Assembly: GCA_026392035.1 (NCBI GenBank)
Contig: JAPLCX010000108.1
Span: forward strand, 4,634 to 68,633
Reading direction: 5' to 3'
Length of the DNA: 64,000 nucleotides
Source: Candidatus Auribacterota bacterium
GTDB lineage: Bacteria; Auribacterota; Tritonobacteria; UBA1439
Both the position numbers and the translations under genes were made by a program. A model generated the notes under the pieces. That model did no database searches. It had not been told where the DNA came from and saw only the letters and a list, made by a program, of their open reading frames with translations. This document shows, in pieces, positions 1 through 12,052 of the stretch (the stretch's first letter is position 1; the number at the start of each line of letters is the position of its first letter).

Positions 1-1
1 G

Positions 2-631
2 CCGCTGCGTCCCACAGAACCAGGGCCGGAACCCCCGCCTCCGCCACCGGATCTCTCAGGCTACACAAGTGTGATACCAGACCCGCTCAAAACTATCCGC
101 GAGACGCCTGTAGGCGCTCTTGGGATGAAGATTGACCGGAAGCTGTTTGAACGTTTTGAAGAAACCGTAAAGGCCGATCCGGTAGCCCGGGAGAGCTATG
201 AGCGAGGCGATATTAAAGAAGCGGAGGCCTATGTCGTAGCGAATCTGTTCGACAAACCGGAATGGTTCTTCAGCCTTGAAAAATTACGCAAATCAGTGCA
301 TCTGGATCGGCGGATTACTCTACGGGAAATTCTGGCCAAGGTATTCGGCGAGATTGACCGATTCAAAACCAAGGATGAACTCCTGGAGGAGGAACTGTCG
401 AAATTCGTTTCCATCCACAAGCCGGATGCGACACGCATGCCGGTAATACGGCAATTTTTCAAGGCATACCTGACCGATGGCGGTGTCCGGGGCATTGTGG
501 ATTCCCGCGAATTTCCCAGGCTGGCTGATAATCCCAAAGTATCGCTGGCTGACTTGCGATTCCTTGGGGAATGGCGGGATCGTATTCCTGAATATGTGAA
601 GGACTACGTATCTCTGAACCAGTTTGTGTGA
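2..631 (+). CDS. hsdR: Type I restriction enzyme R subunit (HsdR), C-terminal fragment; gene is open to the 5' edge of the window
   Basis: Reading frame is open from nt 2 (no in-frame stop before the listed M at 71). Pro-rich linker then a helical C-terminal domain typical of HsdR C-termini. Sits immediately upstream of an hsdM/hsdS gene. Assignment rests on family resemblance and context only. Confidence 0.5.
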   Translation, partial: PLRPTEPGPEPPPPPPDLSGYTSVIPDPLKTIRETPVGALGMKIDRKLFERFEETVKADPVARESYERGDIKEAEAYVVANLFDKPEWFFSLEKLRKSVHLDRRITLREILAKVFGEIDRFKTKDELLEEELSKFVSIHKPDATRMPVIRQFFKAYLTDGGVRGIVDSREFPRLADNPKVSLADLRFLGEWRDRIPEYVKDYVSLNQFV

Positions 632-743
632 TGTAAATGGATGTGCGGGAGTTTTAAAACTTGAGGTCACAGATTGTGACCTCAAGCGCAGGTCTCATGA
701 GGATGTCGCAATTTGTGATATCCTCTGACATTAGGTCATCGTT

Positions 744-1316
744 ATGAATAGCAATCGAGTGTCCATACCAGCGGAGCGAATCGAGGGATTGATTCTTCTG
801 ATACGGGGGCAGAGGGTTATGTTGGATTCCGATCTGGCAAAGTTGTATGAAGTCACGACATCAAACCTGAACAAGGCGGTCAGACGTAATCCCGAGCGTT
901 TTCCGTCCGATTTCATGTTCCAGCTTAATGCATCCGAGTACCGGTCTTTAAGATTCCAATTTGGAATCTTAAAGCGCGGCCAGCACTCAAAATACCTGCC
1001 ATTGGCCTTCACCGAGCAGGGCGTTGCGATGCTCTCCAGCGTATTGAACAGTCCTCGCGCTATACAGGTAAATGTAGCCATTATGCGCGCTTTTGTACGC
1101 TTGCGCCAATTACTTGCCACACATGCAGGCCTGGCCCGAAAGCTTGAGGAGATGGAGCGCCAGTACGACCGGCAATTTCAGGTTGTGTTTGAAGCTATCC
1201 GTGAACTAATGAAGCCTCCGGAACCAAAAAGACGGCAGATCGGGTTCCATGTCCGGGAACGGCGTGCCTCATATTCCGCTCGACGGAAAAAGGTTGTGAA
1301 ACATGCTCGACGCTGA
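744..1316 (+). CDS. ORF6N (KilA-N-like) DNA-binding domain protein
   Basis: N-terminus [42 protein letters not shown] matches the ORF6N domain signature. Basic C-terminal tail. Inserted between hsdR and hsdM. Confidence 0.75.
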
Positions 1317-1428
1317 AACCAAAGCGAGAATAGATTCCGCCCGCGACATCCTGGTGGGCGCTATATTACCCTCTCCCTCTGGAGGGAGAGGGCGGGGTGA
1401 GGGGGAATATTTTGCTCTTCGTGACTGA
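1303..1428 (+). pseudogene. Duplicated 5' fragment of hsdM ([19 protein letters not shown]...) followed by an unrelated 22-codon tail and a stop
   Basis: nt 1303-1360 are ~88% identical to the true hsdM start at 1452-1510 (MLDTDTKARIDSARDILVGK). The ORF6N stop codon lies inside this copy. Confidence 0.5.
1360..1395. other. GC-rich inverted repeat/hairpin (CCCTCTCCCTC-TGGA-GGGAGAGGG) in the spacer between the hsdM 5' duplicate and the real hsdM
   Basis: Perfect 9-11-bp arms seen directly in the sequence. No T-tract follows, so it is not a canonical terminator. Confidence 0.4.
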
Positions 1429-1451
1429 TTCTGCATGAAAGGAAGCAATGT

Positions 1452-3929
1452 ATGCTTGATACTGATACAAAAGCGAGAATAGACTCCGCCCGCGATATCC
1501 TGGTGGGCAAGGTGCCTGATCCAAAATCCCAGGTGGAGCAAATCACCATCGCCCTGATCTACAAGTTCATGGACGACATGGACCGCCAGTCGGAGGAACT
1601 GGGCGGCAAAGCGGCTTTCTTCTCCGGTGAGTTCAAGAGATACGCTTGGAATCACCTACTCGATAATCGCCACAGCGGCCATGAGCGGTTACTTCTCTAC
1701 GCCGAAGGCATAGAGAAGATGAATACCAATAAGAACATCCCGCAGCTTTTCCGCGATATCTTCAAGGGCGTCTTTCTTCCCTACCGCGATCCAGAAACGC
1801 TGAATCTTTTTCTTAAAGAGATTAATGGATTCACGTATGATCACAGCGAAAGGCTTGGGGATGCGTTTGAATATCTCCTCTCTGTTCTCGGAAGCCAGGG
1901 AGAAGCCGGACAGTTCCGAACACCGAGGCACATTATTGACTTCATTGTCTCAATCGTCAGCCCTCAGAAAAATGAAACTATCCTCGATCCCGCATGTGGC
2001 ACCGCGGGATTCCTGATCTCATCTTACAAGCATATCCTAATCCAGAACACCAAGGATCGCCCCGGAGATAAACTTACGGCCGACGAACGCGGCAGGTTAA
2101 TGACAAATTTCTGCGGCTATGACATATCGCCCGATATGGTGCGATTGTCCCGCGTAAATATGTACCTGCATAGTTTTGCAAATCCGCGCATCCACGAATA
2201 TGACACATTGACAAGTGAGGAGCGATGGGACGAGCGCTATGACGTGATCCTGGCTAATCCGCCTTTTATGTCACCCAAAGGTGGTATTCGGCCCCATAAT
2301 CGCTTCAGCATCAAAGCTACCCGAAGCGAGGTGCTGTTTGTTGACTATATCGCTGAGCATCTCAACGTCAATGGCCGCGCCGGCATCATCGTGCCGGAGG
2401 GAATTATTTTTCAGTCGCAGAATGCTTATAAGAAACTGCGGAAGATGCTCGTCGAGAATTATCTCTGGTGTGTGGTTTCGCTCCCCGGCGGTTGTTTTAA
2501 TCCTTATTCCGGAGTGAAGACGAGCATCCTCCTCCTCGACAAATCGCTGGCAAAGCGGATAGATGAAATCATGTTTGTGAAGATAGGGGATGATGGGTTT
2601 GATCTCGGCGCGCAGAGGAGGCCGATTGAGGAGAATGATTTGCCCGAGGCACTGGCGCTAATTAAGAAATGGAAGGAAGGTAACAAAGAAGTTCAAGAGG
2701 CGCAAAAGAAATTGGCTCATGCCGTCAGCTGCAAACAGCTCCTTGAATCCGGCGATTGCCACCTCTCCGGCGATCGCTACCGGGATAAGGGTATTCGAGT
2801 CAGCGGCAAGTGGCCGATGGTGCCCATTGGAAAACTGTGTGAGAACATTAAAAATGGCCTCACTCCAAAAGAACATAGAGGACGTGTTGTCTATATTGGG
2901 CTAGAAAATATTGTATCAAACTCCGGTGAGCTTGTCGGAGAATTTGAATCCGAAATTAAAGCAATAAAGAGCACAAAACTGCGTTTTCAGAAAAATAATA
3001 TCTTATATGGCAAACTGCGTCCCAATCTTAATAAGGTTTGGCTTGCGGACCGTGATGGAATTTGCTCCACCGATATAATGGTTTTGCGCTTCAATTCGAT
3101 CCTTGCAAACCCTTCTTTATTTGTACATATCCTTAGGCAAAAGATCTTCAATAACAAAGTGCTCCAGGGACTTGTTGGAGCACAATTGCCAAGAATCAAA
3201 TTCTCATACTTTGTATCTATAGATGTCCCCCTTCCCCCTCTGGAAGTACAGGAGCAGATTGTCGCGGAACTGAACGGCTATCGGAAGATCATCGAAGGCG
3301 CAAAGCAAATCATCGCCAATTACAAACCGACCATTAAGATTAATTCGGCCTGGCCGATAGGTGTTTTGAAAGAGGTGGCAGAGATTAATCGATTAACAAT
3401 TGACCCGGGTGAGAAATATGGCAGCCGAGAATTTTGCTATGTCGACATTTCCTCTGTAGAAAACGGTACCGGGAGAGTTATGTTCGGTAATCGCATAAAA
3501 GGTAGTGAAGCTCCCAGTAGGGCACGCCGTGTCGTCGCCAAAGGAGACGTTTTGCTTTCAACGGTTAGGCCAAACTTGAAAGCATTCGCCTGCCTCGATG
3601 AGGTCCCGGATGATGCTGTTGCTTCAACCGGGTTTGCTGTTTTGACACCTCGTGCAAACAGAGTATTAAGTCGGTTCCTCTGGCATCTACTTTTCGATGA
3701 TTGCGTCCTGGCGCAAATGCTAAGCAGGATGGGGCGAGGTGCATATCCGAGCATAAATCAATCAGATGTTGAATCCCTGAAAGTCCCCCTTCCGCCCCTC
3801 GACATCCAACACCAGATCGTTGACACGCTCGAATCGGAGCGGGCGATAGTAGACGCGAACCGGAAGCTGGTCGAAATGTTCGAGCAAAAGATTCAGGCCA
3901 AGCTCGCAGAAATATGGGGTGAAGAATAG
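1452..3929 (+). CDS. hsdM: Type I R-M methyltransferase-specificity fusion: N6-adenine MTase (HsdM) domain fused in frame to a two-TRD HsdS
   Basis: HsdM motifs: LDPACGTAGFLI (motif I) and LANPPFMSPKGG (NPPF, motif IV). The HsdS part begins near aa 440 (from ~nt 2770) with TRD1. The central conserved repeat is LPPLEVQEQIVAELNGYRKIIEGAKQII. TRD2 and the C-terminal conserved repeat LPPLDIQHQIVDTLESERAIVDANRKLVEMFEQKIQAKLAEIWGE follow. One uninterrupted 825-codon ORF. RBS AAGGAAG upstream. Confidence 0.85.
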   Translation: MLDTDTKARIDSARDILVGKVPDPKSQVEQITIALIYKFMDDMDRQSEELGGKAAFFSGEFKRYAWNHLLDNRHSGHERLLLYAEGIEKMNTNKNIPQLFRDIFKGVFLPYRDPETLNLFLKEINGFTYDHSERLGDAFEYLLSVLGSQGEAGQFRTPRHIIDFIVSIVSPQKNETILDPACGTAGFLISSYKHILIQNTKDRPGDKLTADERGRLMTNFCGYDISPDMVRLSRVNMYLHSFANPRIHEYDTLTSEERWDERYDVILANPPFMSPKGGIRPHNRFSIKATRSEVLFVDYIAEHLNVNGRAGIIVPEGIIFQSQNAYKKLRKMLVENYLWCVVSLPGGCFNPYSGVKTSILLLDKSLAKRIDEIMFVKIGDDGFDLGAQRRPIEENDLPEALALIKKWKEGNKEVQEAQKKLAHAVSCKQLLESGDCHLSGDRYRDKGIRVSGKWPMVPIGKLCENIKNGLTPKEHRGRVVYIGLENIVSNSGELVGEFESEIKAIKSTKLRFQKNNILYGKLRPNLNKVWLADRDGICSTDIMVLRFNSILANPSLFVHILRQKIFNNKVLQGLVGAQLPRIKFSYFVSIDVPLPPLEVQEQIVAELNGYRKIIEGAKQIIANYKPTIKINSAWPIGVLKEVAEINRLTIDPGEKYGSREFCYVDISSVENGTGRVMFGNRIKGSEAPSRARRVVAKGDVLLSTVRPNLKAFACLDEVPDDAVASTGFAVLTPRANRVLSRFLWHLLFDDCVLAQMLSRMGRGAYPSINQSDVESLKVPLPPLDIQHQIVDTLESERAIVDANRKLVEMFEQKIQAKLAEIWGEE

Positions 3930-4094
3930 CAACAGAGCCAAGAGGTGTAATCATTATTATGATGATGATCATTGGACTTAATGTGCTTCAGCCTTCTATG
4001 TGGGGTCTATGAATATAGCGGTTGCCCAGTCCTTAAACAATAGGTGTTATGAAGTTAGAGGCCCCGGCTAGGCAGGATAAAAGAGAATAAGAAT

Positions 4095-5336
4095 ATGTTT
4101 GGACAAAAGTATTTTGAACAACGTATTGGCGACATTTTCCATTTATCTCCAATCCCGTACTTGTGTGGCGATGGTGAGTTATCCAATTCACATGAATCAT
4201 GCAAAGTGCGGTGGGAACTGAATGTTCCTATCACCGGGGAACCACTTCTTGTCATTAGTACTGGCAAAGTGATCACGCCTGATAGTTGGATTACAGCAGA
4301 CCGACAGTTTGTTGAGTGGATATTGACAGGAGCCACAGATGATAAATTATTCTTGATCGCAGCGGAAGCAGTCATATTAAATAGAATGAAGCCTTCATCT
4401 GATGAGCAGCCGAATTATTATTTTAGCCAGTTTCGGCAGATGGATATTTTGCGAAGTTCATCAAAAGCAGTTACTAAATTAGAGGCAATAACGCTTAATT
4501 TTACATTTGAAGGTACAGATAAATTCCAAATAGCAGTCGCTGGAAGGCAAATCCACTTCCGACAAAGCAAGCAGTATAGCGAGTTAAGGGAGCTTATAAA
4601 GATCAAACGGATTGATCGCGCCTTAATTTCTGAGATCCATGTTCCACTACTTGAAGGAGAGACGCTAGAAATGGGGATAGAGATCCTATTCACGCTAGGA
4701 TGGTTAATTTCTTTTCTCACCTTAAACCGAGTTTCAACTCCATTGCTTCGCCTGCTAGACAATGAAACGTTGTGTGGTTGGAGAATTATGGAGCTCCGTT
4801 CTTATCCTTATCATCCTAGTGAAATCATTGATAATAAAATAATCCCAGAAGGCATCAAGAAATGCCTCGAATCAGTATATGATAATTTTGTGAGGTTTAG
4901 TAAATCGCTAGAGCTGGAACGACTCGTAGATATGATTTTGACAGCGTATCAGGAGGGGCTTGTGGAATTCAAAGTGGCTGGGCTTATTTTAGGATATGAA
5001 CTATTTTGTACGTCTTTTCTGAAATATAAAGGCAGACCGCTGACTCTAGAATCTAACATCGAGCAGAAGCTAAATGGTGTAAATAGTTATCTTCGCTTTA
5101 TACCCGCGCATTTGCTTAACGAAAGACTGCGGAAAGATATTCGCAACCCGCTTTTTCACGAAGGATTGATTATTGGGATTGATACAAGGAGTTTATTTCG
5201 ATGGTATAAAGAATATTTGGATCTATTGATAGAAATGCTTTTATTTATTTTAGGCTATAAAGGGAATTTTATTTCACGCGTAGATTATAAGCCCATTCCG
5301 GTCCCGATATCCGCAGGCAAATCCAATATCCCTTGA
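4095..5336 (+). CDS. Hypothetical protein (413 aa); first gene of the AT-rich two-gene island; no recognisable catalytic or NTP-binding motif
   Basis: Long ORF in a markedly AT-richer stretch than the flanks. Codirectional with the SIR2-like gene 70 nt downstream. No Walker A, TIR-like or HEPN-like motif seen. Confidence 0.6.
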   Translation: MFGQKYFEQRIGDIFHLSPIPYLCGDGELSNSHESCKVRWELNVPITGEPLLVISTGKVITPDSWITADRQFVEWILTGATDDKLFLIAAEAVILNRMKPSSDEQPNYYFSQFRQMDILRSSSKAVTKLEAITLNFTFEGTDKFQIAVAGRQIHFRQSKQYSELRELIKIKRIDRALISEIHVPLLEGETLEMGIEILFTLGWLISFLTLNRVSTPLLRLLDNETLCGWRIMELRSYPYHPSEIIDNKIIPEGIKKCLESVYDNFVRFSKSLELERLVDMILTAYQEGLVEFKVAGLILGYELFCTSFLKYKGRPLTLESNIEQKLNGVNSYLRFIPAHLLNERLRKDIRNPLFHEGLIIGIDTRSLFRWYKEYLDLLIEMLLFILGYKGNFISRVDYKPIPVPISAGKSNIP

Positions 5337-5405
5337 TGACAGAAGTGGAACACAGGCTATGATGAATTCATTGAGCGTATATATGTCAGGCAATAATCGC
5401 TTTGC

Positions 5406-6605
5406 ATGAATATGAAAATCATACTTTTTCTGGGATCAGGAGTATCATTTCCGACGGGATTGCCATGTGCGAAAAAGGTAACAGATTCTATTCTCAGCGA
5501 TGAATGGCATAGTTGTAGTGATGGGATATTTCGACCGGGGCCAGAACCGAATCAGTATTTTCGAGACGATAATCTCGCGCCTTGTCTTCAGCAGTTTCTA
5601 AAATTGCTTAAGGAATATGCTGACGCTTATTATTCAAATAAGCATAGGCCAGAGTCGAATTACGAAGATTTATATTACCTCGCGCAGCAGATAGAGGATG
5701 AGGAGTTGGGAGAGATATTTAATCCAGCCATACGGCCTTTTGTCGAAGAGATAAAAAACAAGACTGTAGCATTATGCAGTCGGGAACAGTTTGGTATCAA
5801 AGACTTAACTTTTAGAGAGCTAGGCTGGAAAGCTTGCATATTTATTGAATATGCTTTATGGCAACTTTTGGGTACTAACAATAATCCTGAAGGGATGAAT
5901 CTCATTAAAGAGCTTGCGCTATCGCCAGAAGTTGAAGCTTTAGATATTCTCACTTTGAATCATGACATTCTAGTAGAAAGATTCCTTAGTCGTAACGGAA
6001 TTCAATATGCTGATGGTTTTGGGCTACCTGATGGAGATGTTAGGTTTTTTAAGCCATCGACATATGATGAGGATATCAAGGTTCGCCTTTTCAAACTTCA
6101 TGGCTCAATCAACTGGTTTTGGCTTAGACGCCGTGAGGGTGATATTGCCATTGCTGAATATGGCATCCCAATAAATAATGACATTTGGCACTTTAAAGAT
6201 GCAAAAGGTGAGAACATTGATAACTTGATGGGCGGGCCCAGAATTTTGATAGGGACTTATAACAAGATACCGGATTATGGTCAGGGCATATTTTCAGGAG
6301 TACACCTCAAATTTCAGTCTATTCTCCCAGAACGTGATTTGATGGTTATGTCCGGCTATGGCTGGAATGATAGGGGGATATCTCTCCGCCTTCGAGAATG
6401 GCTTAATTCTTCAATGGATAAACGCCTTTATCTATTGCATCAAAATCCTGAATCAGAAATTCGCGATAAATCAAAAAGTGGAATGTGGCACTGGTATGAG
6501 CCATGGGTAAAAGAGGGAAGGCTTGTGCCAATTAAGCAATGGTTGTGTGATATTAAATTACCTGAACTAATCGGAATAATTAAAACCCATCGAAGTGTGC
6601 ATTAA
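5406..6605 (+). CDS. SIR2-like protein (SIR2_2 / DHS-like NAD-binding family), standalone, 399 aa
   Basis: Rossmann start ILFLGSGVSFPTGLP. Catalytic-pair region LTLNHDILVE (Asn) ... FKLHGSINWF (His), arranged as in ThsA/DSR-type SIR2 domains. Later LMVMSGYGWNDRGI motif. The whole protein is SIR2_2-like. Confidence 0.75.
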   Translation: MNMKIILFLGSGVSFPTGLPCAKKVTDSILSDEWHSCSDGIFRPGPEPNQYFRDDNLAPCLQQFLKLLKEYADAYYSNKHRPESNYEDLYYLAQQIEDEELGEIFNPAIRPFVEEIKNKTVALCSREQFGIKDLTFRELGWKACIFIEYALWQLLGTNNNPEGMNLIKELALSPEVEALDILTLNHDILVERFLSRNGIQYADGFGLPDGDVRFFKPSTYDEDIKVRLFKLHGSINWFWLRRREGDIAIAEYGIPINNDIWHFKDAKGENIDNLMGGPRILIGTYNKIPDYGQGIFSGVHLKFQSILPERDLMVMSGYGWNDRGISLRLREWLNSSMDKRLYLLHQNPESEIRDKSKSGMWHWYEPWVKEGRLVPIKQWLCDIKLPELIGIIKTHRSVH

Positions 6606-6663
6606 CTCCGTTCAACGACTATAAAGATCAAAGAGGCAGCCCCTCTTAAACAGCGTTTAGAAA

Positions 6664-6697
6664 CTTTTGGAGCGCGCAAAACCAAGAGCCTGCGGAG
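6664..6697. repeat. Repeat family R1, copy a (CTTTTGGAGCGCGCAAAACCAAGAGCCTGCGGAG)
   Basis: Near-identical copy at 7183-7217. Seen directly. Confidence 0.6.
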
Positions 6698-6821
6698 CCG
6701 AGGTCAGAGGTTTCTTTTCCTGCACCCGTGGAGCCCGTGGGGGAAATCGAAGGGGATCACTAAAAACAGCGGGAATTTTTTCTCTCATTCTAATCCCAAT
6801 TTTAGCATTGCTGCCCAACCC

Positions 6822-6875
6822 ATCCGCCTTGACTCACGCAAATGTTATTGACCTCATCCATGAACGCTCAACCCC
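6822..6875. repeat. Repeat family R2, copy a (ATCCGCCTTGACTCACGCAAATGTTATTGACCTCATCCATGAACGCTCAACCCC); contains two -35-like hexamers TTGACT/TTGACC
   Basis: Second copy 105 bp downstream (6927-6980). Partial third copy 6981-7006. Confidence 0.6.
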
Positions 6876-6926
6876 GCCGCCCTGCTGCCCATTCCCTCCC
6901 GCATCTATAATTGGAATGCTAAAAAG

Positions 6927-6980
6927 ATCCGCCTTGACTTACGCGAATGTAATTGACCTCACCCCTGAGCGCTCAACCCA
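6927..6980. repeat. Repeat family R2, copy b
   Basis: ATCCGCCTTGACTTACGCGAATGTAATTGACCTCACCCCTGAGCGCTCAACCCA, ~85% identical to copy a. Confidence 0.6.
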
Positions 6981-7182
6981 TCCTCCTTGACTCGCATGAA
7001 AGTTATCGGCATACGCATTTAAGCGTCCACGACACCTCAATAAAGCTTCCCCATCATAAGCGGAGTGGAAGCGGAGAGGGTACGGAGAGGGTGTCTCCCT
7101 GGGTGAGAAAAGAACCCCCCGCACCATCTCACGGTGATGCGGGGGCTTTCCAGAGCCACCGGGGATTATGCCTTTTAATGAG

Positions 7183-7217
7183 CTTTTAGAGCGCGCGAAA
7201 AACCTGGAGCCTGCGGA
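7183..7217. repeat. Repeat family R1, copy b
   Basis: CTTTTAGAGCGCGCGAAAAACCTGGAGCCTGCGGAG; pairs with 6664-6697. Confidence 0.6.
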
Positions 7218-7688
7218 GAGATTCCCGAGACTAAAGTCTCGGCTACGAGTCTCGGCTACCAAGCCCGGCCACGCCCCGGTCCCGGTGGGACTTCCCTTCG
7301 GCGGGGTCCCTACCGGGAGAGGAGCAAAGAAAAACAGCACAGGTCATGAGTCGGAGTCGCAAGGAGCGTGACAGCTATGCTAAGGCACCTCAACTAAGCT
7401 CGGTGACTTCGTCGCGCTCCTTGCTTCACATATGGAGCCAGCGCGGCCTGTCGAGTCGGGAGTGGTATGCTCCGAAGATCCTTCGCTGCGCTCAGGAGCT
7501 CCGCGGGGACGGGCGAGCAATCAATATGCCTTCAGGAACTTGAGATTCCGCTTCCGGGAGCGGTGGATTATGTTAGGCAAGATCACCGGGAACAAGGCCC
7601 CTCGGCTATGCTCGGACTCTCCGCTCGTTCGCAAAAGCTCACTCTCTCCGACTGGTAATGGGGCCTCGATTTGAGCCATTTTTTCATT

Positions 7689-7733
7689 TCGAACCAACTC
7701 CGACCGGGAAACTGGTCGGGGTTGGTTCGTTTT
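7689..7733 (+). terminator. Intrinsic terminator on + strand: long hairpin CGAACCAACTCCGACC-GGGAAACT-GGTCGGGGTTGGTTCG followed by TTTTG
   Basis: 15-bp interrupted stem plus T-run, read directly. Marks the 3' end of a + strand transcript from the gene-free region. Confidence 0.6.
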
Positions 7734-7863
7734 GCCTCCGGCTTCGCCTCCGGAACACACGCGCGCGTTGAAGAGATTTGAATAAATGAAAAGGGATAGG
7801 CTGCTCCCCGAATCTGATTACCACGAGCGTGTCGAAAAGATTCCTGCGGCGGAGGCAAAATAC

Positions 7864-7895
7864 AAAAGGCCCTTATAAAGGGCCCTTTGCATTTT
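7864..7895. terminator. Bidirectional intrinsic terminator (AAAAGGCCCTT-ATAA-AGGGCCCTTT flanked by T/A runs)
   Basis: Hairpin with T-runs on both strands, immediately downstream of the minus-strand lipoprotein gene ending at 7968. Confidence 0.6.
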
Positions 7896-7967
7896 AGCGC
7901 CATGACCGCCGATGTGATTTTCTCCGGCTCCAGCCGGCGGCGCGGTCACAGGAGAAAAGGCTGACGC

Positions 7968-8291
7968 TCAGATAACCGTGTCGAAAACCATCGCGATCAT
8001 CCGAAACGGCAGTGCCACGACATCCCCGATCAGGATGAAAAACCTCCCCACGATACTGTGGGATTCCTTCTCCTTTATGATCGTTGTCTCTTTGACTACC
8101 TTCCCGGGCTCTCCCGGCGTGGGCTCCGTTTTATAGACGGTTTCTTCCTTGGTGACAGACTTGGCAGATGAGCCGCACCCGGTCATGAGAAGCGACGCCA
8201 TGAAGATCACCACCACACCCAGGATTATCCCACGATGCCAGCCTGCCGTTGATCGCCATATATTCATTTCGCTCCTCTCTTTAGGCAACAA
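7968..8291 (-). CDS. Small lipoprotein (signal peptide with lipobox LLMTGC), unknown function
   Basis: Hydrophobic N-terminus ending in LMTGCGSS. Lys/Glu/Thr-rich mature part. Confidence 0.45.
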   Translation of the reverse strand: MLPKERSEMNIWRSTAGWHRGIILGVVVIFMASLLMTGCGSSAKSVTKEETVYKTEPTPGEPGKVVKETTIIKEKESHSIVGRFFILIGDVVALPFRMIAMVFDTVI

Positions 8292-8311
8292 CCCATAACG
8301 TGCAGCAATAG

Positions 8312-8728
8312 TTATTCCTCATGCCCTCCATGTTCTTCACGCTCTTCATGCCCTTTATGCTCGCCCTTGTGCCCCTTCGCGCATTTCTCGGACATCTTCT
8401 TATACATGGGGCATGCGGCCTGCATCTCCATCATCATTTTCTGCATACCTTCCATGTCCATTTTAATTTCCGCTTCCTTCTGCACATTCAGATCCTTGTC
8501 GTATTTAATGAGCTTATTGCCCGTCATCACCACGACGCCGCCGTCCGCGGTCGCGACGATCGACCGCTTCATCATCTTCTCAGCCATCTCGGCGTGCATG
8601 GGGCAGCAGTAGCCCATTCCCTCTTTCTCCATCGTGTGCAGCCATGCTTTTCCGTGACACTTCATTGGCCCGGCGCACCCCAGGCATACCATCGCCAATG
8701 CCACGCCTGCCGCGAGAACTCTTTTCAT
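8312..8728 (-). CDS. Secreted Met/His/Cys-rich protein, probable periplasmic metal (Cu/Ni/Co)-binding protein
   Basis: Start moved to internal Met (MKRVLAAGVALAMVCLGCAG signal peptide), which has a GGAGG RBS. The upstream 54 codons of the listed ORF are GC-rich read-through. Mature part has CHGK, CCPMH and a His-rich tail GHKGEHKGHEEREEHGGHEE. Confidence 0.55.
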   Translation of the reverse strand: MKRVLAAGVALAMVCLGCAGPMKCHGKAWLHTMEKEGMGYCCPMHAEMAEKMMKRSIVATADGGVVVMTGNKLIKYDKDLNVQKEAEIKMDMEGMQKMMMEMQAACPMYKKMSEKCAKGHKGEHKGHEEREEHGGHEE

Positions 8729-9023
8729 GCCTTCTTCCTCCCTCTTGACAGTTGCCTCCGCCCATCTCCTCACACACCCGGCGCCGGGCGTGTGCACCCT
8801 GCAATGATTCAAATGTTGTTGAATGTATGTGGCGCTGCGCGCGCACCTCCTTTCTCTTCTGCAGCACCTGAGCTTGAAAAGGTGTCCCAATATCTCTCGT
8901 GCTATATTTTAATACAGTTACCCCCGATTGGGGAAATCTTTTTGATGTGAATCATCGGGTGTGGTTCATGCGACGTACGCCGATAGCGCAATAATGACTC
9001 TTTCCTGCGCGAGGGGCCGTTGA

Positions 9024-10502
9024 TCACTGCACCCGCCCGAGGTAGTACTCCACCGGCGCGCGGTCGTCGGTGAGGACGGGCACGTCTGCCCCCACCTCGC
9101 TCTTCCAGAGGTGGGTCAGGTAGCGGTTCGTTTCCTCATCGGCGCTCTCCGGCGCGGGCTCGCGATTCGACTTCAGCGCCGCGAGAATGATGTTCTGTAC
9201 CTCGCGCCCGTCCTCCGGATCATCGACGGGAAAAAGCATGACGCGCGGGAAGACTTCCGCACAGGTGGCGTACTCCGCCCTGGTGAATCTCCCGTTCATT
9301 CCGTCGACGGCGCCGATGATATTCACGAGCAGCACGCCCCCCTCGGCCAGCATGCCGCTCATTCTCCGCGCTGCCTCAATTGTCGTGAGCTGATACGGCA
9401 GGCAGTTCGCGTCCCTGAACGCGTCGATAATGATCACGTCGTACCTGTTGCCGCTCCTGTTGAGGAAGGTTCTGCCGTCCTCGTGGTGGACGGTCAGGCG
9501 GGGGTTGTCCCGCAGATTGAAATATTTTCTGGAGATCTCTGTCAGCATCGGATCGATCTCCACCACGTCGATGCGCGCATCGGGATATCGCCTGAGAAAT
9601 TCTTTCGGGTAGGCGTAGGCCGCCCCGCCGATCATGAGTGTGCGTCTGAAACCGGTGGCGAAGTGCTCGGCGAGGCGGAAAAACTTCATGTAGTCGAACA
9701 CGAAATCCTCGCCGTCGAGGTACATGGCGGACTCCTGCCCGTAGGGATCCGTGGAGAGGGCGAGGATCGGCCTCCCCGTCACCTCGTCCGTGTCCCTATA
9801 TATCCAGACCCGGTTATAGGGAGTATCAATGTCGAGCATCACATCCCTCAGCCCTCCACCCAGCATGGAACCGCCGGCCGCCAGGAAGAGAAACAGTATG
9901 CCGGCCCTCGCCTTCCCGAGCCGGCCGCTGAACACCGCGAGGGAAAGAAGCCCAAGGACCGCCGAAGTCAGCAGGAGCAGACGCACGTTGCCAAGTAAGG
10001 GTATCAGGACAAATCCCGCGAGGAAGGTGCCGGTGATGCTTCCGATGGCGGAGAGGGCGTACAGCCTCCCGATGGCCGACCCCGAACTGGCGACATACCG
10101 TATTTTAAGTCTGGCCGCGTACGGGGAGACCATCCCCAGAAACACATTCGCCGGCGCAAAGAGCAGGAGGGCGCCGCACAGGGAGAGGGTTCCGTTGCCG
10201 CTGACCAAGGCATTCAGCGAGGAGAGGAGTTTATCTTTTAGGAGCGCAGTCAGCCCGACGCAGGAGGCCGCCAAGAATACCAGCAGAGAGAGGAGCCGCG
10301 CATCTGGCCGCCTGTCGGCGATTCTTCCACCCCACCAGTAGCCGATGCTCAGGCTCGCCAGGATCACGCCGACCAGATTAGTCCACACGTACAGCGACGT
10401 CCCCGCGTAGGGGGCGAGCACCCTGGAGCCCGTGAGCTCGAAGACCATGACCGCGGCACCGCAGACGAAAACCGCCAGTTCGCACGCCCACCTTCTCATC
10501 AT
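9024..10502 (-). CDS. Fused polytopic membrane domain / spermidine-synthase-like (PABS-type methyltransferase fold) protein
   Basis: ~7 predicted TM helices at the N-terminus, then TLMIGGAAYAYPKEF ... RIDVVEIDPMLTEISRKYF ... YDVIIIDAF, resembling the spermidine synthase core. Confidence 0.7.
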   Translation of the reverse strand: MMRRWACELAVFVCGAAVMVFELTGSRVLAPYAGTSLYVWTNLVGVILASLSIGYWWGGRIADRRPDARLLSLLVFLAASCVGLTALLKDKLLSSLNALVSGNGTLSLCGALLLFAPANVFLGMVSPYAARLKIRYVASSGSAIGRLYALSAIGSITGTFLAGFVLIPLLGNVRLLLLTSAVLGLLSLAVFSGRLGKARAGILFLFLAAGGSMLGGGLRDVMLDIDTPYNRVWIYRDTDEVTGRPILALSTDPYGQESAMYLDGEDFVFDYMKFFRLAEHFATGFRRTLMIGGAAYAYPKEFLRRYPDARIDVVEIDPMLTEISRKYFNLRDNPRLTVHHEDGRTFLNRSGNRYDVIIIDAFRDANCLPYQLTTIEAARRMSGMLAEGGVLLVNIIGAVDGMNGRFTRAEYATCAEVFPRVMLFPVDDPEDGREVQNIILAALKSNREPAPESADEETNRYLTHLWKSEVGADVPVLTDDRAPVEYYLGRVQ

Positions 10503-10703
10503 CTATCCCCGTAGACGTTTTTCATAACACTTTTGTCAGGAGTAAGATACAACCTAAATATTTCTGGCGCGCAGAAGGGATATTTAGTTTGCATCGATCT
10601 CTCCTGCAGCGAGATGCGTACAACGTCTACATAACCGTCCGGCAGCTCCTGAACATAGCGGCATCTTCGATTATGCCCAGGACTCGTGCTGCGTTAGCAA
10701 GGA

Positions 10704-11945
10704 TTATTGACTGATAGAACAGGTCCCCCCTCCTGTTTTTGTTGTATATGCTTTCTTGTTGTAGGGAAGCCTCATCAATAGCATGCCCATAAGGCAGTTG
10801 TTCGTTATGCCCGCGAAAATGAGCCCGCATGAGATCAGGATTGAAATCCAGATGAACGCGCCATGTACAAACCTCGCCAGTACTATGCCAAGCAATACCA
10901 CACTTCCTGCAATAATTCTGACCTGCCGCTCCAGCGATATGGCAGGCTCGCCTTTGATCACAGGCAGTTTCTCCTTTTGCCAACGCGCAATGCCTCCGTC
11001 CATTACCTTTACAGAATGAATGCCGGATTGCAGCAGCATATCGGCTGCCATGGGAGAGCGATTCCCGCTATGGCAGAAGACCACGTAGGTGTGCCCCGCC
11101 CGGCTCAGGTCTTCTACTTTTGAGGCAAGCGTATCGATGGGGATATTGAGCGAATGATCAATGTGGACCTCATTAAATTCCAGCGGAGAGCGAACATCCA
11201 GTAAGATAACCCGAGGGTCTCTGGATGCCAGCGCTCGCGCATCTTCAGGTGAAACCATTTCCAGAAGTGAGGCTTCACCCCTTTGGTTCACACGTATAAT
11301 GTTGTCGATGTTGAACGGTTTGGGGAGCTGTTTTGAACGGGCATTTTTAACAAATGATTCCTTGCTCGTTTCCTTGAGGAAGGGGTTGCTTTTCTTTTCC
11401 CTGGCGATAGTTGAAGATCTATTCCCGTGGTAATCGTGCGCGGGGAACAGCATGGTTTCATCGGGTAATGCTTTCAGCCTCTGCAGCGTATCAAACATAG
11501 CTTCAGGAGAGCCGTTCTGGAAATCCGTGCGCCCCACGCTGCCGATTAAAAGCACATCTCCGGTAAATAATCTGCCTTCTCCATAGATGCTCATGGCATC
11601 ATCGGTATGACCGGGCGTATATATCACCTTGCAGCGGCATGAACCGAAGGCTATTTCCTCATTGTCCTTCAGTCTCCTGTCCGCCACACTGGATATGGCC
11701 TTTTCATGCATTAAAACCGGGGCCCTGTACCTCTTCTTCAGCACCGCGGCCAGAGAGAAGTGGTCCGCGTGCGTGTGCGTATCCATTATATATTTGAGAC
11801 CCAGCCGCTTCTTTGTCAGATATCCGGCATATTCCTCCAGCAGACTTATGTGCGGATCAATGATGACCGCCTCGTTCCGGGAACTTAAGATATACGAGTA
11901 GCAGCTGCCGGCGCTGAATTGCTTTGACGCAAAATCCTTGCTCAT
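10704..11945 (-). CDS. MBL-fold metallo-hydrolase (persulfide dioxygenase-like) fused to a rhodanese domain and a C-terminal small membrane domain
   Basis: HTHADH zinc motif, downstream His/Asp ligands, rhodanese active-site loop CHSGNRS, and a terminal hydrophobic DUF2892-like segment. Confidence 0.8.
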   Translation of the reverse strand: MSKDFASKQFSAGSCYSYILSSRNEAVIIDPHISLLEEYAGYLTKKRLGLKYIMDTHTHADHFSLAAVLKKRYRAPVLMHEKAISSVADRRLKDNEEIAFGSCRCKVIYTPGHTDDAMSIYGEGRLFTGDVLLIGSVGRTDFQNGSPEAMFDTLQRLKALPDETMLFPAHDYHGNRSSTIAREKKSNPFLKETSKESFVKNARSKQLPKPFNIDNIIRVNQRGEASLLEMVSPEDARALASRDPRVILLDVRSPLEFNEVHIDHSLNIPIDTLASKVEDLSRAGHTYVVFCHSGNRSPMAADMLLQSGIHSVKVMDGGIARWQKEKLPVIKGEPAISLERQVRIIAGSVVLLGIVLARFVHGAFIWISILISCGLIFAGITNNCLMGMLLMRLPYNKKAYTTKTGGGTCSISQ

Positions 11946-12052
11946 ACGTCATCCTCCTTTCCGCAGTTGATTGTATCAAGATACGCGTGGCGGATGAATT
12001 GAGTAAGTATATTACAATTGCCGTCGTGATTTTATCGGATTATCATTGCATC

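Follow-up and report, generated by a model that had tools for sequence, protein, structure and literature searches.

A natural, mosaic methyltransferase-specificity fusion with an exchanged TRD1 in a putative two-gene Type I-like restriction-modification system

[quoted passage not shown] We asked whether this fused gene, which we will call M~S, is real, what kind of system it belongs to, whether its first TRD was acquired by recombination, and how the protein might assemble. Our reading of positions 2-3929 of the window is that two genes here form a Type I-like restriction-modification system, that a passenger gene lies between them, and that the M~S allele is a mosaic with an exchanged TRD1; we put the probability of this whole reading at roughly 85%.

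The M~S gene lies at 1452-3929 on the forward strand. It starts with ATG and runs for 825 codons plus a stop without interruption, and the 825-residue product is 100% identical to the NCBI protein MCX6340513.1. Amino acids 1-400 (1452-2651) comprise an HsdM-like N-terminal helical domain and a gamma-class N6-adenine methyltransferase core, with motif I (LDPACGTAGF) from residue 178 (nt 1983-2012) and motif IV (NPPF) from residue 269 (nt 2256-2267). Pfam's N6_Mtase matches residues 133-443 (E = 1e-49) and HsdM_N matches residues 7-104 weakly. The M part also matches PADLOC's MTase_I model (PDLC03021, 309 bits) and the HsdM chains in PDB, with E values from 3e-40 to 1e-13; these include 5YBB_A (E = 3e-40) and 3UFB (E = 4e-30). 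In an alignment of 68 family members, most of the invariant columns are within the M part. The earlier note on this DNA had described an uninterrupted 825-codon frame with a gamma-class core, and the frame, the motifs, and the N6_Mtase match all agree with it.

The M part is followed by a linker (residues 401-455; 2652-2816) that is variable across the family and ends in a conserved SGDRYR...KWP, which is the left boundary of the TRD1 cassette. TRD1 itself, an AT-rich exchangeable cassette, spans residues 456-593 (2817-3230), close to the limits of about 2870-3240 that were noted at first. The central conserved region, CR1 (residues 594-631; 3231-3344), is a coiled-coil helix that begins with LPPLEVQEQ at residue 594 (nt 3231); its conserved sequence, LPPLEVQE..IVAEL.GY.KII, forms the right boundary of the cassette. 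TRD2 spans residues 632-779 (3345-3788). The distal conserved region, CR2 (residues 780-825; 3789-3926), is another coiled-coil helix; it begins with LPPLDIQHQ at residue 780 (nt 3789), and its consensus is LPPL..Q..IV...E.E..LV.ANRKLIE.FE.KIQ.KLAE.WGE. Pfam's Methylase_S matches M~S in two stretches (E = 2e-25), full-length PADLOC Specificity_I models align to the S half (such as PDLC03100 over residues 453-819), and the HsdS chains 5YBB_D and 3OKG match it at E = 1e-32. The C-terminal half is HsdS-like, as was claimed, and it has two TRDs with conserved coiled-coil regions between and after them. In other words, a canonical specificity half (TRD1-CR1-TRD2-CR2), with both repeats, is covalently joined to M.

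Such fusions are widespread. We found at least 120 full-length fused homologs, and the best 120 are almost all about 800-870 amino acids long, with both Pfam domains. At least 576 matches in species-representative genomes were confirmed with tblastn, and these are from many bacterial phyla as well as from archaea. Among the best 150 cluster representatives of the M part (clustered at 50% identity), 81 have 720-899 amino acids, 39 have 560-719, 16 have 900 or more, and 14 are shorter and fragment-like. The NCBI record of one homolog calls it "restriction endonuclease subunit M/S". On two complete RefSeq plasmids, M~S is annotated as one gene: pPZ02 of Paracoccus zhejiangensis encodes two TRDs, while an Escherichia coli IncF plasmid encodes a relative from within the same clade with one TRD (677 amino acids). 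The M-S fusion had been called unusual; this holds in comparison to the textbook three-gene system only, as the fusion defines a large conserved clade.

The two TRDs of the window's M~S have different close relatives. TRD1 is 90% identical to L004 (P0003) at the amino acid level and 92% identical at the nucleotide level, versus 24% amino acid identity to L006 (P0002). TRD2 shows the opposite pattern: it is 84% identical to L006 at both levels and 20% identical to L004 at the amino acid level. Along the gene, the sequence switches from L006-like to L004-like at about 2770-2830, in the linker, and the right-hand switch is at about 3250-3310, in CR1. The fraction of synonymous differences from L004 drops from 0.38 in the M part to 0.13 in TRD1 (p = 6e-8), so synonymous divergence is three times lower in TRD1. 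Compared to L006, the fraction is 0.27 in TRD2 and 0.27 in the M part. The window's allele is a mosaic, with a framework and TRD2 akin to P0002/L006 and a TRD1 akin to P0003/L004. The mosaic identity and the synonymous divergence show that TRD1 was exchanged by recombination, as the earlier note had proposed, and they do so independently of base composition.

Similar exchanges have occurred across the family. The 136 TRDs from family members form 44 clusters, and 10 of the 23 clusters with multiple members occupy both positions. For instance, the type of TRD that is found at position 2 in the window occurs 28 times at position 2 and 13 times at position 1, with P0006 among the position-1 cases. 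This distribution indicates that the family diversifies its specificity as whole TRD cassettes are exchanged by homologous recombination in the conserved flanking SGDRYR..KWP, CR1, and CR2 sequences. The mosaic structure of the window's gene corresponds to textbook Type I specificity shuffling.

Base composition is a poorer guide. TRD1 had been described as AT-richer than both TRD2 and the M part, and this is correct for overall GC content: 0.39 in TRD1 (2817-3230), 0.49 in TRD2 (3345-3788), and about 0.50 in the M part (TRD1 vs. TRD2 at all positions, p = 0.003, Fisher's exact test). But for GC3, which is 0.60 in the M part, 0.38 in TRD1, and 0.45 in TRD2, the difference between the TRDs is not significant (p = 0.28), while both differ from the M part (p = 6e-6 for TRD1 and p = 1e-3 for TRD2). 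At synonymous sites, both TRDs, rather than TRD1 alone, depart from the framework. This is also the rule across the family, whose TRDs have GC3 about 0.2 lower than their frameworks: GC3 is lower in TRD1 than in M in 75 of 75 genes, and lower in TRD2 than in M in 69 of 73. The dip in the window's TRD1 is about the median (0.47 of the family genes have a deeper one), and the dip in its TRD2 is shallower than most (0.71 are deeper). Because low GC3 in TRDs is family-wide, composition alone is not diagnostic of a swap, and the idea that the AT-rich dip is a specific footprint of the TRD1 exchange has to be abandoned. More generally, a dip in composition is no proof of a recent swap in any one gene.

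The conserved partner of M~S is a restriction and motor (R) protein. In all 67 loci with at least 2.6 kb of upstream DNA, an R gene lies 5' of M~S on the same strand. We found no second (free) M gene within about 6 kb in any locus (67/67 loci with enough upstream DNA). The R proteins of the family contain HSDR_N (a weak match), ResIII, DEAD, and SWI2_SNF2 domains, along with the invariant nuclease motif VLEAK.E and the helicase motifs EMATGTGKT, ISDEAHRS, GLTATP, and QIKGRGTR. Among curated families, they come closest to the EcoAI/FtnUII type IB R subunit, and among solved structures, to HsdR from Vibrio vulnificus (3H1T). Both subunits score below the curated cut-offs: the M part scores 63.5 bits against the hsdM model TIGR00497 (cut-off 242.75), and the family's R scores 226 bits against the EcoAI-type model NF046051 (cut-off 550). 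We therefore consider the family to be a relative of the characterized Type I families and not a member of them.

The window contains the 3' end of the R gene (2-631, forward strand). This runs past the left edge of the window, with no in-frame stop from base 2, and encodes the last 209 residues, which are 49% identical to the C-terminus (residues 647-843) of the 844-residue R protein of locus L002. The separate R subunit is seen in full in the relatives, and our description of its anatomy is taken from these proteins, of about 843 residues.

Between R and M~S, the loci commonly carry unrelated passenger genes, which encode ORF6N, KilA-N-like, or Fic proteins, four-helix-bundle proteins, a group II intron reverse transcriptase, and others. 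In the window, the passenger is an ORF6N-domain gene at 744-1316 on the forward strand (Pfam ORF6N, E = 1e-33; PADLOC candidate family PDC-S05, E = 1e-55). The order R, ORF6N, M~S recurs in the P0004 contig. In L018 and L020, ORF6N-like sequences also separate R from M~S, and on two short contigs (L022 and L043) they lie immediately 5' of M~S. We also considered a conserved third gene downstream of M~S, but the cargo there is variable, and the largest cluster is present in just 11 of 86 loci.

The 5' region of M~S has been rearranged as well. Positions 1303-1359 (forward strand) are 88% identical to 1452-1508; this 57-nt direct repeat, D2, encodes the 19 residues of the family consensus. It is what is left of the first 19 codons of an older M~S allele, at the place where the gene originally began, and it overlaps the stop of the ORF6N gene. 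The 13 nucleotides 5' of the remnant's start (1303) are identical to L006. The remnant marks another rearrangement, besides the TRD1 swap. It is followed by a 92-nt leader (1360-1451, forward strand), which is homologous to the leader 5' of M~S in L004 and L005 and includes a hairpin (1369-1391) and, ahead of the true start codon, a Shine-Dalgarno-like AAAGGAAG. The hairpin occurs just once in the window, and none of the other loci contains it in identical form; in the alignment to L004 and L005, common blocks flank it on both sides. We rejected the idea that it is a repeat element, as it is single-copy and homology to the L004/L005 leader is a better explanation. The rearranged region from 1303 to 1451 lies between M~S and the upstream genes and could affect expression. 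Scans for promoters and terminators gave signals near the expectation from shuffled sequences, and we found no tRNA (1-12000) or Rfam family (1-9000) to mark the boundary of an island.

Could these observations be explained without a working, two-gene, Type I-like system? The window is from a metagenome-assembled genome, which is the sole reason to suspect that an assembly or sequencing error removed a stop or a frameshift between separate hsdM and hsdS genes. However, the 120 or more fused homologs are independent and come from different samples and assemblers; 80 loci from different species have the same uninterrupted architecture; the junction motif SGDRYR..KWP is kept in frame across the family; nearly all of the best 150 cluster representatives for the M part are fusions; and the two complete plasmids also have a single gene. 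For practical purposes, an artefact is refuted. It is also improbable, if less drastically so, that M~S is now a solitary methyltransferase whose restriction partner or operon is damaged. The remnant start, the inserted leader, and the ORF6N passenger might be taken as signs of such damage, and the last 209 codons are all that can be seen of R. But those codons form an open frame without a stop that, by eye, is close to residues 627-840 of the R protein of L004, intact relatives often have passenger genes at the same place, and M~S retains all of its catalytic and CR motifs, its own ATG, and a purine-rich stretch that resembles a ribosome-binding site. Another thought is that M~S is not a relative of Type I systems, but rather a Type IIB/IIG-like enzyme of the AloI, CjeI, or BcgI kind. 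TstI and PpiI are further single-chain enzymes of the AloI/CjeI kind. The S half does match the C-terminal part of PADLOC's Type IIG R-M-S model PDLC03624 (E = 1.5e-34), Pfam finds weak matches to Eco57I and MmeI_Mtase in M~S, and AloI and CjeI share its ratio of one catalytic unit to two TRDs (PMC3874165). Yet the polypeptide has no nuclease domain, its N-terminus is HsdM_N-like, its best matches in PADLOC, PDB, and Foldseek are Type I M and S subunits, and its conserved partner is an HsdR-like ATP-dependent nuclease-helicase, which Type IIB/IIG systems lack. We consider the Type IIB/IIG reading to be very unlikely.

We return, then, to a Type I-like system of M~S and R. All of its modules are known from canonical Type I systems, and especially from type IB (EcoAI/FtnUII), which have the same three modules in the same order (R, then M, then S), the same TRD-CR-TRD-CR layout of S, and the same exchange of TRDs to give new specificities. 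Unlike those systems, M and S are one polypeptide here, and M and R are well below the curated cut-offs. The closest description is "Type IMS" (Roberts et al. 2012, PMC3510504), a name proposed for systems in which M is fused to an S with one or two TRDs while HsdR remains a separate protein. The window's system fits this at the level of genes: M and S are in one chain, the 3' end of R is at 2-631, and the synteny holds in 67 of 67 loci. M~S is a normal member of its large family and the natural equivalent of the engineered fusion. That fusion, EcoKI MSFusion, also joins HsdM in frame to a two-TRD HsdS with HsdR separate, but it is artificial and has the full C-terminal tail of HsdM, while in the natural M~S, the tail helix seems to be absent. 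The two are only distantly related (2Y7C_B, E = 4.5e-27 over the core).

The tail matters because, in the canonical M2S1 complex, M and S are separate polypeptides, and the C-terminal tail helices of HsdM form a four-helix bundle with the coiled coil of HsdS (PMC9159934). In an AF2 model of M~S (mean pLDDT of 82.7), there are long helices in CR1 (residues 597-623) and CR2 (residues 783-821). The linker has short helices only (none longer than 12 residues between 397 and 455) and pLDDT below 50 at residues 445-451. Also, the phmmer alignment of M~S to 5YBB_A ends at residue 422 of 507 of that chain. So, the modeled protein appears to lack the long helix at the end of M by which canonical HsdM docks on HsdS. 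If so, then M2S1 cannot form in the canonical way, and a second M seems to have lost its usual docking site on the coiled coil of S. The model's pTM of 0.49 is too low to place the M domain over TRD1 or TRD2. A conserved internal start or slippery site is an unlikely source of free M, as the candidate methionine (residue 456, in KWPM) is isoleucine in P0006 and no other part of the protein varies as much as the linker.

Each polypeptide has one M domain for two TRDs. The earlier note's "1:1 M:S in cis" is accurate for the polypeptide, but it does not describe the working complex. The engineered EcoKI fusion restricts and modifies DNA in vivo with only hsdR added, but in vitro, free HsdM had to be added for cleavage (PMC3510504). 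The loci of the M~S family have no free M gene, so a two-chain model for M~S is conjectural. We nonetheless think that two M~S chains most likely assemble at each site, one of them with its S moiety unused; an arrangement of this kind was proposed for the engineered EcoKI fusion and is implied for AloI and CjeI.

Another view of the stoichiometry and mechanism, which leaves the identity of the system unchanged, is that M~S works as half of a Type I complex, or R1(M~S)1. M would then methylate only the half-site that is read by the adjacent TRD1, and TRD2 would provide only specificity and orientation. The single R would translocate in one direction, and cleavage would require two convergent sites, as in Type ISP and Type III systems. 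This would fit with the one M and two TRDs of the polypeptide, with the 67 loci, none of which showed a second M gene, and with the lack of a predicted long M-tail helix between the core and TRD1 (and the early end of the alignment to 5YBB_A). Also, the logic of one-strand protection calls for an oriented site, and a pair of unlike TRDs provides one. On the other hand, TRD families that occupy both positions (10 of 23 multi-member clusters) suggest that either position does an equal job beside the M domain, the clade includes the single-TRD relatives from E. coli IncF plasmids, and the M-S1/2 protein of V. vulnificus is reported, in a secondary citation, to dimerize into an M2S1-like assembly. 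We therefore think that R1(M~S)1 is unlikely, though far from negligible.

Under the two-gene Type I-like reading, TRD1 and TRD2 would be kept apart by the coiled coil of CR1 and CR2, and each would read half of a bipartite asymmetric target. Methylation of adenine by the M domain would mark self DNA. At an unmethylated target, R, with its predicted PD-(D/E)xK nuclease and SF2 ATPase motor, would dock, translocate the DNA at the expense of ATP, and cut it.

A natural fusion with a solved structure is M-S1/2 from V. vulnificus YJ016 (7EEW), which heads the Foldseek matches of M~S; the top matches are Type I M and S chains only. Like M~S, this natural protein joins a Type I M covalently to S-type recognition elements, but it has one TRD and one CR (an M:TRD ratio of 1:1), while M~S has two of each (1:2). 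It is reported to work as a dimer, which restores an M2S1 arrangement (Seo et al. 2022, as cited in PMC12429846). Its similarity to M~S is low (E = 1e-21 over residues 112-369; 16% identity in the Foldseek alignment). The HsdR fragment 3H1T is from the same strain, YJ016.

Two other groups share part of this design. AloI and CjeI, like M~S, have one methyltransferase unit followed, in the same chain, by two swappable TRDs. But they have an N-terminal PD-ExK nuclease in the chain and no ATPase partner, and they cut at fixed distances; in the window's system, the nuclease is on the separate helicase-type R, and we found none in the M~S chain. A review called the ratio of one catalytic unit to two TRDs in AloI and CjeI "a mystery" (PMC3874165), and one methylase for two recognition domains in M~S is the same puzzle. 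Type ISP enzymes (LlaGI and LlaBIII) also have a gamma-class methyltransferase fused directly to a recognition module, as well as a helicase-type motor and a nuclease. However, these are all in one chain of about 1,600 amino acids, with a single TRD and a continuous asymmetric site, whereas the window's system has a separate R and two TRDs. If the window's complex is R1M1, then Type ISP could be a mechanistic analogue.

It is possible, but we suggest it only tentatively, that the natural two-TRD fusions, which occur in hundreds of species, form a class of their own in mechanism, intermediate between Type I and Type ISP. If so, they would use either R1(M~S)1, methylating one strand of a bipartite site with a defined orientation and translocating in one direction, or an assembly of two chains with spare TRDs. 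Either complex would depart from the R2M2S1 paradigm. In our incomplete coverage of the literature, we found no report of the activity, target, or methylation pattern of two-TRD members of the clade, and a search for natural two-TRD M-S fusions turned up only engineered fusions, M-S1/2 of V. vulnificus, and R-M-S (Type IIG) fusions. The combination of a fused M~S with R, which was constructed artificially and put forward as a new type in 2012, already exists in nature, in many bacterial phyla and in archaea, and on plasmids from E. coli and Paracoccus. In the papers that we found, the term "HsdMS" mostly refers to a pair of genes, hsdM and hsdS.

The HsdM-like and HsdS-like parts of M~S form a single unbroken open reading frame (1452..3929, forward strand), which begins with ATG and encodes 825 amino acids. 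The methyltransferase motifs LDPACGTAGF (residue 178; nt 1983) and NPPF (residue 269; nt 2256) are present, as are both repeats of the specificity half, LPPLEVQEQ (residue 594; nt 3231) and LPPLDIQHQ (residue 780; nt 3789). In Pfam, residues 133-443 match N6_Mtase (E = 1e-49), two stretches match Methylase_S (E = 2e-25), and residues 7-104 match HsdM_N weakly. When we searched the sequences of PDB, the top matches were exclusively Type I chains: the HsdM 5YBB_A matches residues 77-412 (E = 3e-40) and the HsdS proteins 5YBB_D and 3OKG match the C-terminal half (E = 1e-32). In the AlphaFold2 model (mean pLDDT 82.7), the helices of the conserved coiled-coil regions, CR1 and CR2, span residues 597-623 and 783-821. 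The ORF listing, the motifs, and the Pfam and PDB matches thus bear out the uninterrupted M-S fusion that was described in the earlier note.

An identical 825-residue protein is already in NCBI (MCX6340513.1, "N-6 DNA methylase"), from a 72.7 kb contig of a Candidatus Aureabacteria (Auribacterota) metagenome-assembled genome. Of this contig, 8.7 kb lie beyond the window. The best 120 homologs are 51-78% identical with 100% coverage of the query, contain both Pfam domains, and are nearly all 800-870 amino acids long; one of these bears the name "restriction endonuclease subunit M/S" in NCBI. When one genome per species was scanned, at least 576 M~S stretches were confirmed, from which 80 loci were retained. 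These span Planctomycetota, Chloroflexota, Verrucomicrobiota, Bacteroidota, Nitrospirota, Pseudomonadota, and Spirochaetota, among others, and also include CPR bacteria, several archaea, and the cultured Thiobacillus denitrificans RG (locus L063; contig NZ_LDUG01000036.1). The same architecture is annotated as a single gene (WP_101754820.1) on a complete RefSeq plasmid, pPZ02 of Paracoccus zhejiangensis J6. Given the identical NCBI protein, the fused homologs, and the single gene on pPZ02, an assembly artifact is excluded for practical purposes.

The earlier note had called the fusion unusual, which is not so within its clade. Using only the M part (residues 1-450) as the query against 1.84 billion cluster representatives, we found 963 matches with E ≤ 1e-30. 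Among the best 150 of these 963, 81 are 720-899 amino acids long, 39 are 560-719, 16 are at least 900, and 14 are under 560 and resemble fragments. These lengths, which are mostly those of fusions, imply that the fusion is the normal state of the clade.

In every related locus that we examined, a nuclease-helicase partner of ~840 amino acids (R) is encoded directly upstream of M~S. R is upstream and on the same strand in 67/67 loci that have at least 2.6 kb of upstream sequence (of the 80 genome loci), and none of the 67 has a second copy of M in its flanks. R contains the domains HSDR_N (weak), ResIII, DEAD, and SWI2_SNF2. When 63 full-length R proteins (median length 843 amino acids) are aligned, the nuclease motif ..D..LL....VLEAK.E is invariant, and the superfamily 2 motifs EMATGTGKT, ISDEAHRS, GLTATP, and QIKGRGTR are found. 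In R from locus L004, the nuclease residues are D61, E75, and K77, and GKT is the Walker A motif. Among curated families, R is closest to the EcoAI/FtnUII family of type IB R proteins (226 bits, below the cut-off of 550 bits); among solved structures, it best matches the HsdR fragment 3H1T from Vibrio vulnificus. The window opens inside R: bases 2-631 are an open frame of 209 residues that is 49% identical to the C-terminus of R from locus L002. Judged by eye, this fragment is close to residues 627-840 of R from locus L004.

Between R and M~S, the window has an ORF6N-domain gene (744-1316; Pfam E = 1e-33; PADLOC PDC-S05), and the contig with the related allele P0004 has the same gene order, R-ORF6N-MS. 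About a third of the related loci have a passenger gene in this gap. The passengers are mutually unrelated (ORF6N, KilA-N-like, Fic, and four-helix-bundle proteins, a group II intron reverse transcriptase, and a transposase), and none of those in the related loci is a methylase. The gene downstream of M~S also varies among loci. Because R is constant while the gap passengers and the downstream gene vary, the unit consists of two genes, R and M~S. The gaps themselves (744-1316 in the window, and those of loci L009-L087) are a hotspot where small passenger genes of unrelated kinds occur; others seen there are Fic/DOC, 23S rRNA IVS-type four-helix-bundle, GxxExxY-type, DUF3800-like, and Y1 transposase-like genes.

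Comparison with two related loci shows that the window gene is a mosaic. Relative to L004 (allele P0003), the first target-recognition domain, TRD1, is 90% identical in protein and 92% in nucleotide sequence, while TRD2 is unrelated (20% amino acid identity). Relative to L006 (allele P0002), it is TRD2 that is similar (84% in both protein and nucleotide sequence) and TRD1 that is unrelated (24%). We also counted synonymous differences, using the codons whose encoded residue is shared. In the comparison with L004, the M part and TRD1 have synonymous-difference fractions of 0.38 and 0.13, respectively (p = 6e-8). In the comparison with L006, M and TRD2 have the same fraction, 0.27. In a sliding comparison, a tract at ~2770-3310 is L004-like, with L006-like sequence on both sides (~1800-2770 and ~3310-3850). 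These limits place the breakpoints in the conserved linker motif SGDRYR..KWP and in CR1. P0002 and P0004 share the closer framework and the other type of TRD1; in the simplest reading, TRD1 of the window lineage came from an L004-like donor. That TRD1 was recombined in, as the earlier note proposed, is therefore demonstrable from the mosaic identities and the synonymous divergence.

The evidence that the earlier note had cited for a swap, the base composition of TRD1, has a more general explanation. With domain limits set from conserved motifs, TRD1 (residues 456-593; nt 2817-3230) is AT-rich, as claimed, with a GC content of 0.39 and a third-position GC content (GC3) of 0.38. The corresponding values are about 0.50 and 0.60 for M (residues 1-455; nt 1452-2816), 0.47 and 0.61 for CR1 (residues 594-631; nt 3231-3344), 0.49 and 0.45 for TRD2 (residues 632-779; nt 3345-3788), and 0.54 and 0.67 for CR2 (residues 780-825; nt 3789-3926). 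Within the window gene, third-position GC differs from M in both TRD1 (p = 6e-6) and TRD2 (p = 1e-3), and does not differ between the two TRDs (p = 0.28). Across family genes from different species, GC3 is lower in TRD1 than in M in 75/75 (mean -0.22) and lower in TRD2 than in M in 69/73 (mean -0.21), while the CRs equal M. In the window gene, the TRD1 offset of -0.22 is about the median (a fraction of 0.47 of family genes have a deeper dip), and the TRD2 offset of -0.15 is shallower than most (0.71 have a deeper dip). The mean deficit of 0.21-0.22, measured within each gene relative to M and the CRs, is independent of host GC (75 genes, from loci L008-L087 and the window). The dip is therefore a general property of TRD cassettes and not a footprint of the swap in this gene. 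It fits a shared horizontal pool of TRD cassettes that do not take on the composition of their hosts. Taken as a whole, the observation in the earlier note stands, and its interpretation stands in part.

The 5' end of M~S is also rearranged. A copy of its initial 57 nt (1452-1508), with 88% identity, lies at 1303-1359. This repeat encodes the family-consensus N-terminus, lies at the exact position where M~S starts in relatives, and overlaps the stop of the ORF6N gene; it is the remnant of an earlier start of M~S. The 13 nt upstream of the remnant are identical to L006. From the remnant to the real start there are 92 nt (1360-1451), which include a hairpin at 1369-1391 and are homologous to the M~S leader in L004 and L005. 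As we reconstruct this history, 1303-1451 is probably a scar of allele replacement with an illegitimate left junction.

The identity and anatomy of R and M~S support, by homology, a Type I-like mechanism. A bipartite target would be read by TRD1 and TRD2, which the coiled coil of CR1 and CR2 spaces apart. Adenine methylation would be the task of the M domain, and DNA translocation and cleavage that of R. In canonical Type I enzymes, one HsdS is bound by two HsdM. M~S has one M per two TRDs. Its model has no helix of over 12 residues between the methyltransferase core and TRD1, and the alignment to 5YBB_A stops 85 residues short of that chain's C-terminus.

An engineered fusion of EcoKI restricted in vivo without hsdM, but in vitro it required the addition of HsdM. 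The possibilities that its authors considered were traces of free M and a pair of fusion chains in which one S is displaced (PMC3510504). The 1:2 puzzle is shared by AloI and CjeI (PMC3874165). The top Foldseek match for the model of M~S is 7EEW, a natural M-S1/2 fusion from V. vulnificus, which is reported to dimerize into an M2S1-like particle (Seo et al. 2022, as cited in PMC12429846). We grouped 136 TRDs from the family into 44 clusters. This sample favors the TRD types of the query itself; in it, 10 of the 23 multi-member clusters occupy both positions, and the type of the window's TRD2 was found 13 times at position 1. Because TRD types exchange freely between positions 1 and 2, we favor models with two chains per site, in which both TRDs adjoin an M domain. 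A half-enzyme of composition R1M1 seems unlikely to us.

The window system agrees with Type IMS as defined in the literature. It departs from canonical Type I systems in two defining features: these have M and S as separate subunits of an M2S1 assembly, and they belong to curated families whose cut-offs the window system does not reach. It is clearly not Type IIB/IIG, nor Type ISP. A literature search found no experimental work on a natural system of R and a two-TRD M~S. The protein is already in NCBI under a generic name, the architecture is known from database names and PADLOC models, and TRD shuffling is classical. The finding is thus a sound, ordinary annotation. The view across the family, the swap demonstrated for the TRD1 cassette, and the puzzle of stoichiometry give it some added value.

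Single-TRD relatives are found on IncF plasmids of Escherichia coli; these have 677 amino acids and an M part that is 56% identical to the window protein. In the single record that we inspected, the conjugative IncFIA plasmid NZ_AP022031.1 (L088), 3406-10954 encodes an 849-residue R-like helicase, the 677-residue M~S1/2, and, immediately downstream, a 951-residue TrlF/Ppl-type ATPase. Dozens of the 64 Escherichia records matched, and the carrier plasmids are ~67-174 kb. In two other loci (L033 and L042), an extra partial S-like ORF, with the end of a TRD and a CR2-like helix, lies just downstream of M~S. Such an ORF might act as a silent cassette in the switching of specificity.

Directly downstream of the window's restriction-modification system is an AT-rich two-gene cassette (4095-6605; GC ~0.39, versus ~0.58 for the genome background). 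Its first protein (413 amino acids) has no match in Pfam, NCBIfam, or PADLOC, and its second (399 amino acids) is SIR2_2-like (Pfam E = 1e-6; PADLOC Aga_SIR2 E = 5e-16). The cassette may be a SIR2-based defense pair within the same island. The region that follows (6606-7960) appears to be non-coding, with no tRNA or Rfam match. Two repeats lie in it, a direct one of 63 nt (6822-6884 and 6927-6989; 84% identical) and another of 26 nt (6672-6697 and 7193-7218). The region might be the edge of a low-GC island that extends from 1 to ~6600.
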